Shown here: one piece after another, positions 1-1,910 of the stretch
Layout: the number at the start of each line of letters is the position of its first letter
How positions within the stretch are numbered: the first letter of the stretch is position 1
Source: Escherichia coli
GTDB lineage: Bacteria > Pseudomonadota > Gammaproteobacteria > Enterobacterales > Enterobacteriaceae
Strand: one strand, 5' to 3'
DNA: 5,995 nt
Assembly (NCBI RefSeq): GCF_003334385.1
Contig: NZ_QOWN01000079.1
Translations under genes and position numbers: made by a program
Notes under the pieces: generated by a model
Databases searched by the model: none
What the model saw: only the letters and a program-made list of their open reading frames with translations
What the model was told of the DNA's origin: nothing

Positions 1-77
1 TGATCCCGTTACCTTCCGGGACCAAAATTTGGCTGGTTGCCGGTATCACCGATATGAGAAATGGCTTCAACGGCCTG
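1..77 (+). mobile_element. tnpB: 5' fragment of an IS66-family tnpB (orf2); truncated remnant
   Basis: Frame 3 from nt 3 translates [25 protein letters not shown], which I recognise as the conserved N-terminus of IS66-family TnpB. The window opens inside an ATGA overlap (tnpA stop / tnpB start), as is typical for IS66. The resemblance stops at about nt 77 and the frame terminates at 114-116, so the rest of tnpB, tnpC and the right inverted repeat are missing. Confidence 0.5.
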
Positions 78-457
78 TTAAGAATTTCCTGGCGAAGAAC
101 TCTTTCTTTTGCATGAGCTGAATTAATTCGGATATCCAATGGCATGGCAAGTCGCTCAATCGTATAAGAATACACCCCATTCTGAGCATTCATTATATCG
201 GTATGGATATGACGACTAAAGATCGCTATGCTGAAGGCAAGAAAAATCATACCTATAACAGAAATTGAGAAAATAAGTGAATAAGTAAAACCCAGTCTCT
301 GATAAAGAAAATAAACAGCCATACTGATTTCTACAGTAATTGGGAGTAGTGTCCAGAAAACAGATAATGTCAGCGCACTGAATGATTGCGCACCACGATC
401 AATATTTGCAGCCAGGACCGCCGGCTCAAATTCCTTTTGTTTCCGGAAACATATTCC
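78..457 (-). pseudogene. open minus-strand frame encoding a hydrophobic membrane-protein fragment (possibly a transporter transmembrane segment); no credible start, runs into the IS66 fragment
   Basis: Reverse-complement translation is open from the stop at 458-460 to the window edge: ...[118 protein letters not shown]... The first in-frame ATG is at 322-320 although protein-like hydrophobic sequence continues upstream of it, suggesting an internal gene fragment. The ORF track does not list it because it has no stop inside the window. Confidence 0.25.
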
Positions 458-546
458 TTAATGAAAATGAAACACCTACAACCTACATTGGTTGCCAATT
501 GCTCAATAACCATGAAAAATATAACTACTTATTTTAAAGTGTCAAT

Positions 547-565
547 GCGAATGATAATCATTTTT
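547..565. promoter_or_regulatory. Fur-box-like sequence
   Basis: gcgaATGATAATCATTttt matches the Fur consensus GATAATGATAATCATTATC at 15 of 19 positions, with the central ATGATAATCATT matching 12/12. It lies in the junction DNA between the minus-strand fragment and the colicin remnant. Confidence 0.35.
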
Positions 566-679
566 TATCATCAATGGTGGGGTTCTGAGGTGAAGATCAC
601 GAAATGGAAAAATCGTACTCTAAGCCGTTCACCCGTTTTCCGTCATCTGGTAGGTGTTGCAGTTACAATAAAATCACCT

Positions 680-1087
680 TTGCTGAATCTGCGGTAAATT
701 CGGCGAGAAATAACGTCAGTGCCAGAACAAATGAGCAAAAACATGCAAATGACGTTCTTGATGTAAAAAGAGAATTTTTGTTGCCAGCTTGCCGACATCA
801 ACCAGAAGAGAGCTGAAGAGAAAACAGGGTGAACTGAAGGCAACGATTTTGCTGACTGGAGCACTGAGTTTGGTAAGGTTGTCTGGACAGATAACTGGCG
901 TCCATTTTTTGTAAAACTTGAATCACTGGCAGCAGGAAGAGCTGCTTCATCTGTTACCGCATGGACGTTTTCCGTCATGCCGGGGACCCTTGTAGGTATT
1001 CTGGGTTTTGCAATTATTATGGCTGCTGTGAGTGCGCTTGTTAATGATAAGTTTATTGAGCAGAACAATAAACTTATTGGTATCTGA
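680..1087 (+). pseudogene. remnant of a colicin Ia/Ib-family pore-forming colicin gene (channel-domain fragments only; internal deletion and frame changes)
   Basis: Frame 1 (about 680-765) gives AESAVNSARNNVSARTNEQKHANDVLDV. Frame 2 (782-829) gives LADINQKRAEEKTG followed by a stop at 830-832. Frame 2 (833-1087) gives TEGNDFADWSTEFGKVVWTDNWRPFFVKLESLAAGRAASSVTAWTFSVMPGTLVGILGFAIIMAAVSALVNDKFIEQNNKLIGI*. These match, from memory, the start of the colicin Ia channel domain (NSARNN-SARTNEQKHAND) and its C-terminal hydrophobic hairpin (DW-TEFGK...WRP-FVK...hydrophobic hairpin...KLIGI/KFWGI). About 110 codons of the middle of the channel domain and the entire N-terminal translocation and receptor domains are absent. 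Confidence 0.65.
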
Positions 1088-1099
1088 CATATAATGATG

Positions 1100-1126
1100 C
1101 CCTTTCATTTTCCTGAAAGGGTTTTG
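1100..1126 (+). terminator. rho-independent terminator of the colicin transcript, overlapping the 3' end of the convergent immunity gene
   Basis: Stem CCCTTTCA (1100-1107), loop TTTTCC (1108-1113), stem TGAAAGGG (1114-1121), then TTTT (1122-1125) on the plus strand, 13 nt after the colicin stop codon at 1085-1087. Confidence 0.5.
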
Positions 1127-1452
1127 CAGAATATAAATATTAAGTAAATGGCAACTACAGGAACTGATATAACGAAACAGAATAATTCAAATATTACAGT
1201 TAAGCTTCCGCCAACTGGATTAGTAAAGAAGTCTTTTTGCCAGACTTCTTTCCCTGTAAACCTTATTACCATTTTCTGTATTATCTTCATTGAAAAAGGA
1301 AAAGTAATGGAGCTGATAATGCATCCGATGAACGCATAAAACATTCTTGAATTTTCCTGGTTATCTTTCCATCCCAGATAAAAAACTGTAAGAATAATGA
1401 AACCTGGTATCAGGCTTTTCAGAAAATACTTTACAGATATATCCGCTTTCAT
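1105..1452 (-). CDS. pore-forming-colicin immunity protein (colicin Ia/Ib immunity type), 115 aa, integral membrane
   Basis: Intact 115-aa ORF, convergent with and immediately downstream of the colicin remnant, which is the canonical arrangement for pore-forming colicins. It is strongly hydrophobic with several predicted TM segments (GFIILTVFYLGW, FIGCIISSITFPF, SLTVIFELFCFVISVPVVAIYLIFIF). An AAGGAG ribosome-binding site sits 7 nt upstream of the ATG on the minus strand (plus 1460-1465). Confidence 0.65.
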   Translation of the reverse strand: MKADISVKYFLKSLIPGFIILTVFYLGWKDNQENSRMFYAFIGCIISSITFPFSMKIIQKMVIRFTGKEVWQKDFFTNPVGGSLTVIFELFCFVISVPVVAIYLIFIFCKTLSGK

Positions 1453-1562: not shown

Positions 1563-1910
1563 GTGACTTTTGAGCAGAAAAAAGCCCGGGCCATTGCCCT
1601 GATGGACAGTAAAAAGATGTGGCGGAGCAATTATGCCCCTCCTCTTCTGCGTATTCTCTGGCGGCTGGGTATCCGGCTTCCGCCATTACCCTTTATGCCG
1701 TTCTGGCAGGTCACGGTGCTGACGGGGGGCTTATGGGGCATTTCCTGGGGATGTGCAATGTGGTTTATCTACTGGGGGCCGTCAGGAATGGTGGCAGGTG
1801 AGGCCATTATTATAAGTATCACGGGTGGTTTTTTGTTCGGACTGCTCATGGCCTCTTTCCACTGGTGGCGCAGGAAAGTTAACCGGCTGCCACCATGGGA
1901 TGATGTGTGA
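1563..1910 (+). CDS. small hypothetical inner-membrane protein (Trp/Gly-rich, two predicted TM helices); GTG start
   Basis: 115-aa ORF starting at GTG 1563, preceded by GGAGG (1549-1553) with a 7-nt spacer. Hydrophobic core VTVLTGGLWGISWGCAMWFIYWG and AIIISITGGFLFGLLMASF. A possible promoter is TTGTCA at 1468-1473 with TAACAT at 1492-1497. Confidence 0.5.
   Translation: MTFEQKKARAIALMDSKKMWRSNYAPPLLRILWRLGIRLPPLPFMPFWQVTVLTGGLWGISWGCAMWFIYWGPSGMVAGEAIIISITGGFLFGLLMASFHWWRRKVNRLPPWDDV

Follow-up and report, generated by a model that had tools for sequence, protein, structure and literature searches.

The stretch of DNA analysed here, hereafter the window, comprises 5,995 nucleotides of Escherichia coli contig NZ_QOWN01000079.1 (assembly GCF_003334385.1). 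Its first 680 positions carry the beginning of a tnpB gene of an IS66-family insertion sequence (IS), a hydrophobic open frame on the opposite strand, and a sequence resembling a Fur box that precedes a colicin gene remnant. Megablast comparisons with 72,556 plasmids (PLSDB) and 5,426 complete E. coli genomes split this region three ways: positions 1-77 corresponded to IS66 tnpB, positions 78-450 to an ATP-binding cassette (ABC) exporter gene, and positions from 449 onward to a third piece, of which the DNA of window 449-1100 stands about 2.75 kb away from the ABC-gene piece in the matching plasmids. The extent of the middle piece was fixed at 78-450 by a gap-free blastn alignment, the megablast boundaries having been 75/78-450. 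Among the PLSDB plasmids and complete E. coli genomes there was no record of the three pieces side by side or of either of the junctions between them, and no plasmid or genome covered at least 80% of positions 1-700 or 1-1100 in one place. A search of positions 1-1700 against Rfam (E-value mode) also returned no match.

The ABC gene was traced to the last gene of a lasso-peptide biosynthesis cluster, and positions 1-680 are very probably a three-piece scar, left behind as a bacteriocin island of an enterobacterial plasmid decayed step by step (Table 1). The boundaries of the pieces, both junctions (J1 and J2), the order in which the junctions arose and the identity of the parent genes have been demonstrated by the comparisons set out below. 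As such the locus is a case of ordinary decay, in which each component is of a known kind; by their likeness to described elements these are an IS66 remnant, an ABC-exporter pseudogene fragment, a bacteriocin promoter with a candidate Fur-type operator, and what is left of a colicin gene. An earlier note on this DNA had described positions 1-680 as a composite junction, which was upheld, and had overlooked the second of the two junctions, at 449/450.

Table 1. Features identified at the left end of the window, with the details or evidence on which each assignment rests.
Feature	Position	Strand	Details or evidence
5' end of ISEc8 (IS66-family) tnpB, codons 1-26	1-77	+	100% identity, alignment to pE2865-2 ISEc8
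Junction J1, internal IS66 sequence bluntly joined to internal ABC-gene sequence	77/78		Sequence comparison
Inner part (codons 122-245 of 574) of D, the ABC exporter gene in a lasso-peptide cluster	78-450	-	Near-identity to full gene
Junction J2, scar of 2,748-bp deletion with 2-nt 'ac' microhomology	449/450		blastn coordinates, alignment
ATG from precursor start region	452-450	-	Now opens an 8-codon ORF, MFPETKGI, with stop at 428-426
Surviving precursor ribosome-binding site, AAGGAA	459-454	-	Comparison with intact AAGGAATATGTATGAAAAAA... start region
Sigma-70-type promoter of lost lasso precursor operon	518-545	-	-35 TTGACA 545-540, 16-nt spacer, -10 TATATT 523-518
Fur-box-like operator (candidate)	547-572		547-565 matches 15/19; second register reaches about 572 in relatives
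Spacer, about 94 nt	573-666		In E. coli plasmids with lasso cluster only; between operator and colicin remnant
Colicin Ia/Ib gene remnant with internal damage, from about KITSAESAVNSARNN region	667-1087	+	About 90% matches

The leftmost piece was identical in 77 of 77 nucleotides to the tnpB adjoining a gene annotated as 'IS66-like element ISEc8 family transposase'; of the tnpB start codon, the A falls just outside the window, left of position 1. The same perfect match to the 5' end of IS66-family (ISEc8) tnpB was found in thousands of E. coli records, with up to 18 IS66 places per E. coli genome. At J1 an intact ISEc8 reads ...aacggcctg/gctgcgaaag (the slash marking the breakpoint) and the window reads ...aacggcctg/ttaagaattt, continuing from the breakpoint as ttaagaatttcc; the ABC gene, designated D, reads ...catacaga/ttaagaattt at this point in the immediate-ancestor type, with ...catactga/ttaagaa also seen. 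Neither microhomology nor an IS end was present in the sequence at J1, nor was any IS66-type inverted repeat or target duplication found at 77/78. Because the breakpoint is internal to the IS, J1 is to be read, from its sequence, as the scar of an illegitimate deletion or recombination and not as a product of transposition. The alignment to IS66-family elements that the earlier note had called for thus aligned positions 1-77 with tnpB and placed the breakpoint at 77/78, in agreement with its statements that the tnpB homology ends after about 26 codons and that this end is not an IS terminus.

The possibility that IS66 transposition itself made J1, by insertion or by IS-mediated deletion of adjacent DNA, draws on the fact that the IS66 copy abuts the ABC fragment and that a second IS66 copy lies directly to the left of that copy in two related metagenome contigs (L006 and L007). 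Junctions made by a transposase, however, fall at the inverted repeats of the IS, whereas the J1 breakpoint lies 77 nt into tnpB, far from both ends, and the left end of the IS is intact 470 nt upstream. Transposition was accordingly discounted as the origin of J1 on the grounds of the internal breakpoint, and we consider it very improbable. In L007 this left end (GTAAGCG...) is accompanied by an intact tnpA in the same IS copy, and nothing follows codon 26 of tnpB; tnpC and the right inverted repeat are missing from this copy in the related contigs. Relative to a complete ISEc8 (tnpA-tnpB-tnpC with both inverted repeats), then, the start of tnpB is identical but the copy is cut inside that gene, and by its gene content it is a dead remnant that cannot be a complete or autonomous IS. 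To the left of the window, two IS66-family copies stand almost in tandem (L006 5167-9153, L007 84-975), with a gap of only about 90 nt between the right end of one and the left end of the truncated copy, and the upstream copy in L006 carries an IS110-family insertion in its tnpC.

Across its 373 nt the middle piece was 98.9-99.2% identical in DNA sequence to the inside of the ABC genes, annotated 'ABC transporter ATP-binding protein', in pLAO40, pEco118UIb and FDAARGOS_1249, and at the protein level 122 of 123 residues were identical to the parent, the sole substitution being S172R; the motif ...NIDRGAQSF...LLPITVEI... falls inside the fragment. The parent protein contains the ATP-binding domain PF00005 (ABC_tran) at residues 368-520 (E = 3e-26), which was the only domain found by Pfam on the full protein, the ABC_membrane model remaining below threshold. 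Its transmembrane domain (residues 35-308) found its best solved-structure match among the ATM1-type exporters (E = 6e-9). The likeness of this domain to the ATM1-type, or type IV, ABC exporters (e.g. PDB 4MRN) is low, and the genomic context of the parent cluster is one of peptide export and not of metal or Fe-S export.

Of this protein the window retains part of the transmembrane domain only, with no start, nucleotide-binding domain or stop of its own. Two hydrophobic segments are present, with 19-residue Kyte-Doolittle means of up to 2.6. The minus-strand frame is open from position 463 down to 1 and past the edge of the window, and between 464 and 680 stops occur in all three minus frames. 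The earlier note had held that the opposite strand stays open across the entire interval, which is correct for 463-1 and incorrect for 464-680; its description of a strongly hydrophobic frame lacking a start codon, and its guess that this was a fragment of a transporter or other membrane protein, agree with what was found, in that the frame is transmembrane-domain sequence of a lasso-cluster ABC exporter for which homologues exist. A point against this identification is that Pfam returned no match to the 123-aa fragment alone, even at E <= 10, so the identity of the fragment rests on its near-identity to the full-length gene. The translated search against transporter families that the note had proposed would accordingly have failed, and it was the comparison with the full gene that was decisive. 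The minus-strand fragment is thus best described, on the strength of that near-identity, as a pseudogene piece descended from a full-length ABC exporter gene.

An alternative would be that the minus-strand frame is a functional gene for a small membrane protein, a 121-aa ORF that opens with a Met inside the frame at window 322 and extends into IS66. A 121-aa product was indeed predicted here by the gene caller in L006, and the frame is open and hydrophobic with an apparently intact promoter upstream. Set against this, the DNA agrees at about 99% identity with an inner stretch of a 574-aa ABC gene, the last ~34 codons of the 121-aa ORF are the antisense of IS66 tnpB/tnpA, and the ATG nearest the promoter opens a different frame that stops after eight codons. 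Furthermore, the fragment has no Pfam match. An ABC exporter comprises a six-helix domain and an ATP-binding cassette with Walker A/B and signature motifs, encoded in one frame with a start and a stop; the fragment lacks this arrangement, and with only two of the six helices and no nucleotide-binding domain an exporter cannot be built. A functional small gene is therefore most improbable, and a pseudogene piece remains the preferred description. For annotation this carries a warning, since the prediction of a '121-aa hypothetical membrane protein' is to be expected at this place, although it is no gene.

The second junction was resolved by alignment with pEco118UIb (L001). Window 78-450 corresponded by blastn to L001 880-1252 and window 449-1100 to L001 4001-4651, such that 2,748 bp are missing from the window. 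The intact ABC gene reads ...tgtttccggaaac/taatag and the window ...tgtttccggaaac/atattcctta, the latter joining the sequence of the intact precursor start region (...ttttttcatac/atattcctta). The two nucleotides ('ac') shared at the join are typical of what an illegitimate deletion would leave. Lost in the deletion were the precursor gene A, the genes C and B, and the first 121 codons of D, whilst the precursor's ribosome-binding site, leader and promoter were retained within positions 451-572. The short MFPETKGI ORF that now follows the ribosome-binding site (span 426-459 with that site) differs in frame from the D fragment and is meaningless.

Both junctions recur elsewhere. Public contigs, at least 5 in one case and at least 12 in another, encode exact copies of ORFs that span J2, and contigs encoding one such ORF were inspected at six places, all of which have J2; an exact-protein look-up of ORFs spanning J1 found none in the collection. 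In contigs from four JGI metagenome samples (L006, L007, L008 and L010), apparently from at least two projects by their identifiers, J1 and J2 are contiguous and the match runs from position 1 at 97.5-99.98% identity. Two further contigs, L009 and L011, have J2 only, matching from position 78 with D running on to its 3' end, and the S172R substitution is also present in L009. From these J2-only contigs it follows that the 2.7-kb deletion came first and the IS66 junction second; that J2 preceded J1 is the order to which the comparison of these sequences leads. An assembly or chimera artefact might be suspected at first sight, in that IS66 is highly repeated and no PLSDB plasmid or complete E. 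coli genome spans the composite at the coverage given above. The recurrence of J2-spanning ORFs on public contigs, the contiguity of J1 and J2 in four samples and the occurrence of J2 alone in two contigs all oppose such an artefact, and since both junctions lie in independent metagenome contigs it was ruled out, its likelihood being close to negligible.

The intact parent cluster, as found in pLAO40, pEco118UIb and FDAARGOS_1249, comprises four genes in a one-strand order of A (62 aa), C (about 462-498 aa), B (227 aa) and D (574 aa), with the ABC exporter D as its last gene. A is the 62-aa ORF MKKQSKEVKTSGSEHREIMIEIDASKSTNGTGGGSIIEGSYTVYRCDGGSVPSRPFGPPFCP, C encodes an asparagine-synthase-related protein, and B is annotated as 'lasso peptide biosynthesis B2 protein'. 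The B protein scored 82.6 bits against the NCBIfam model NF033537 lasso_biosyn_B2 (cut-off 33), and the C protein matched lasso/macrolactam cyclase models weakly, below their cut-offs. Intact copies are located at positions 2014-6125 of NZ_CP069461 (L004) and 5014-9125 of pLAO40 (L002), and about 25 plasmids of E. coli and one of Salmonella have the whole cluster undamaged. The exact precursor was encoded on at least 1000 public contigs and, within PLSDB, on 25 E. coli plasmids and one Salmonella plasmid. The features looked for in a lasso precursor are Thr at -2, Gly or a small residue at core position 1, and Asp/Glu at core position 7-9. The motif TN/GxGxGS-h-h-E (where h is I, L or V) is invariant in the E. 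coli, Salmonella and Pantoea precursors, which also have two conserved cysteines in the tail; these features suggest a putative 33-residue core with a Gly1-Glu9 ring, predicted traits that, with the two cysteines, are unusual. None of the precursor, B and C that together identify a lasso cluster is present in the window, all three having lain within the deleted 2,748 bp.

A distant homologue with the same A-C-B-D order was observed in Pantoea agglomerans pCFSAN047154_3 (L013 5504-9623), where a 54-aa precursor, MSNKTNVSKPSRKEVLVSVKASVATNGNGSGSLVEGRRRVYRCSSSSGIGFSVC, is 39-40% identical and keeps the TNG...E and YRC...C motifs; this cluster is followed by genes for an RND-type adaptor and an ABC permease. 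In pEco118UIb (L001 1613-3684), the C gene is divided into three ORFs, one of them annotated '7-cyano-7-deazaguanine synthase', and the B gene is shortened, from which it follows that the cluster is decaying by other routes in other lineages.

Comparison with the microcin J25 (MccJ25) cluster mcjABCD, represented here by pJKHS016_3 (L012), revealed the same general composition, both being plasmid-borne lasso systems of enterobacteria in which a small precursor is accompanied by a protease/recognition protein (B), a cyclase resembling asparagine synthetase (C) and an ABC exporter; in MccJ25 the exporter serves in export as well as in self-immunity (PMC13361873). The two differ in gene order, the parent cluster being co-linear (A-C-B-D) on one strand whereas mcjA is divergent from mcjBCD (PMC13361873). 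Identities between the proteins are also low, at 24% for D against McjD (E = 3e-25), 24% for C against McjC, and 35% over 62 residues for B against McjB, and the parent precursor is unrelated in sequence to McjA. Owing to these low identities, the unrelated precursor and the different gene order, the parent is to be regarded, as far as its sequence allows, as a lasso-peptide cluster other than that of MccJ25. Relative to MccJ25, only 124 codons of D and the promoter are left in the window. The designation 'McjD orthologue' was rejected for D in favour of 'distant homologue', McjD not being among its best PDB matches, of which the ATM1-type exporters were the nearest.

The promoter retained at J2 is the best sigma-70-like site within positions 1-1600 (11/12 match), and its -35 and -10 hexamers are invariant in the E. 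coli, pLAO40 and Salmonella salamae versions. In intact relatives it faces the precursor gene, the ATG of which is about 65-70 nt downstream of the -10. A terminator-like site was not found between the promoter and the start of the window. One nucleotide upstream of the -35 begins the Fur-like box, in which GCGAATGATAATCATTTTT (547-565) matches the Fur consensus GATAATGATAATCATTATC at 15 of 19 positions. Consensus positions 4-16 (window 550-562, AATGATAATCATT) are matched perfectly, and this core is a 13-bp palindrome. A custom scan of simulated sequence having the base-to-base transition frequencies of the window gave a chance expectation of 0.003 sites per window at <=4 mismatches; a search for the Fur consensus at <=3 mismatches did not return the 547-565 site and did return one at 1495-1519. 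In relatives a second register of the box, shifted by 6 bp, matches at 15-16 of 19 positions, and the AATGATTA-N-CA core is invariant in three enterobacterial variants, including that of S. salamae.

Colicin Ia uses the iron-regulated Cir receptor, and the Fur-like box might be part of the colicin gene or of some other neighbour, or simply a chance match in AT-rich DNA, given its four mismatches and the existence of the other Fur-like pair at 1495-1519 in simple sequence. The S. salamae plasmid is informative in this regard, since its cluster is 80-90% identical, the similarity ends just upstream of the box, and no colicin homology was detected at that locus; the box, having been kept with the lasso promoter where the colicin homology is lacking, is therefore part of the lasso operon rather than of the colicin gene. 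Moreover, the 5' end and promoter of the colicin gene are themselves missing from the window, its homology starting at about codon 395, and both the low chance expectation and the perfect palindromic core argue against coincidence. A chance or foreign origin of the box is on balance unlikely, and the box is better regarded as a candidate operator of the lasso precursor promoter, through which Fur may have placed that promoter under the control of iron.

Several observations weigh against such control. The run of T residues beside the Fur core (window 561-566, L004 6238-6242) numbers six in the window and five in the intact clusters that have this type of promoter, those of pEco118UIb (L001) and NZ_CP069461 (L004); the extra T puts the downstream TATCAT hexamer out of register and disrupts or weakens the second register seen in the relatives. 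The box is also located at about -36 to -54 from the predicted start (near window 511), further upstream than many Fur operators. The Pantoea homologue matches at only 13 of 19 positions by eye, a scan upstream of its precursor having found nothing at <=5 mismatches, and no Fur-like box was found near mcjA in the MccJ25 locus (L012).

With Fur-repressed bacteriocin and microcin promoters the site shares a Fur-consensus-like operator at a sigma-70 promoter before an antimicrobial-peptide operon (PMC10233263), differing from these in that the box adjoins the -35 on its upstream side and covers neither the -10 nor the start site. Microcin production in general has been documented to be induced when iron is scarce (PMC10233263). 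Promoter and operator appear undamaged and would probably still fire at low iron levels, giving a junk transcript that would cross the D fragment and continue, in antisense orientation, into the IS66 tnpB/tnpA remnant; that Fur binds, that the promoter is active and that transcription reads through in this way are all predictions made from the sequence. With respect to the earlier note, its near-consensus Fur box at 547-565 was recovered, as was the placement of that box between the membrane-protein fragment (which ends at 450) and the colicin remnant (homology from about 667). Its suggestion that a gene once adjoined the box is likewise borne out by the intact relatives, which have the 62-aa lasso precursor gene downstream of the promoter to which the box is attached.

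The following sequence of events would account for the present arrangement. Initially, a co-linear lasso cluster on the minus strand (A, cyclase-like C, protease/recognition B and exporter D) would have come to adjoin a colicin Ia/Ib gene in truncated form, the cluster being transcribed from a strong sigma-70 promoter that has a putative Fur-type operator just upstream of its -35. Gene A, together with C, B and codons 1-121 of D, would then have been lost through an illegitimate deletion of 2,748 bp at 2 nt of microhomology, which left codon 122 of D fused out of frame to the promoter, leader and ribosome-binding site. By a second illegitimate event, codon 245 of D would have been brought up to codon 26 of the tnpB of an ISEc8 copy nearby, with loss of the remainder of both D and tnpB. 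No functional part of a lasso system is left in the window, be it precursor, maturation enzyme, exporter or immunity function, and the system cannot function there because the precursor, maturation enzyme and exporter are gone.

By itself the window carries little weight, being a clear example of the erosion of a plasmid bacteriocin island with an intermediate stage kept in other samples. The fragment does, however, point to a common plasmid-borne lasso cluster of E. coli, distinct from microcin J25 and with a conserved candidate operator of the Fur type. No description of the parent cluster was found in the searchable literature by peptide sequence, WP accessions or topics, an absence that is not proof of novelty. 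We tentatively suggest that the cluster could specify an undescribed lasso-peptide 'microcin', widespread on plasmids of E. coli and Salmonella and probably under the control of Fur, and that the lineage of the window dropped the cluster and kept an iron-responsive promoter now reading antisense into the IS66 remnant. Should an active peptide be made, it would be a second lasso microcin for E. coli and would allow a connection between iron limitation and the making of lasso peptides to be tested.

To the right of the candidate operator, the spacer is not retained in S. salamae, and no relative of it was detected outside the E. coli plasmids with the lasso cluster. A colicin origin was considered for positions 573-666 and rejected, as translation in the colicin frame displayed no similarity before 667. 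The boundary at 667 is common to all examined E. coli plasmids with the cluster and a colicin remnant, and the first ~395 codons of the colicin are lacking along with its promoter; in relatives the remnant is annotated 'colicin-like pore-forming protein'. Positions 667-1087 and the 115-aa immunity gene that follows (1105-1452, minus strand) match the colicin Ia/Ib and immunity module of IncI/IncF plasmids, though in comparison with the intact module only a truncated colicin remnant is present beside an apparently intact immunity gene. Positions 667-1452 as a whole resemble an orphan-immunity arrangement, in which a damaged colicin gene accompanies an apparently intact 115-aa immunity gene.

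Further Fur-like sequences were observed in this flank and in a related plasmid. Between the colicin immunity gene and a DUF6404 gene (1563-1910, plus strand), two overlapping intergenic matches to the Fur consensus at 1495-1519, CATAATGATAATAATAATC and GATAATAATAATCAATAAC, have three mismatches each, and thus outscore the 547-565 box, but are located in simple ATAATA-type sequence. In pLAO40, a Fur box with two mismatches, GTTAATGATAATCACTATC (L002 10547-10565), was seen at a distance of about 1.4 kb from the lasso promoter; it is situated past a fragment of a Tn3-family transposase, by which the colicin remnant of that plasmid is cut short.

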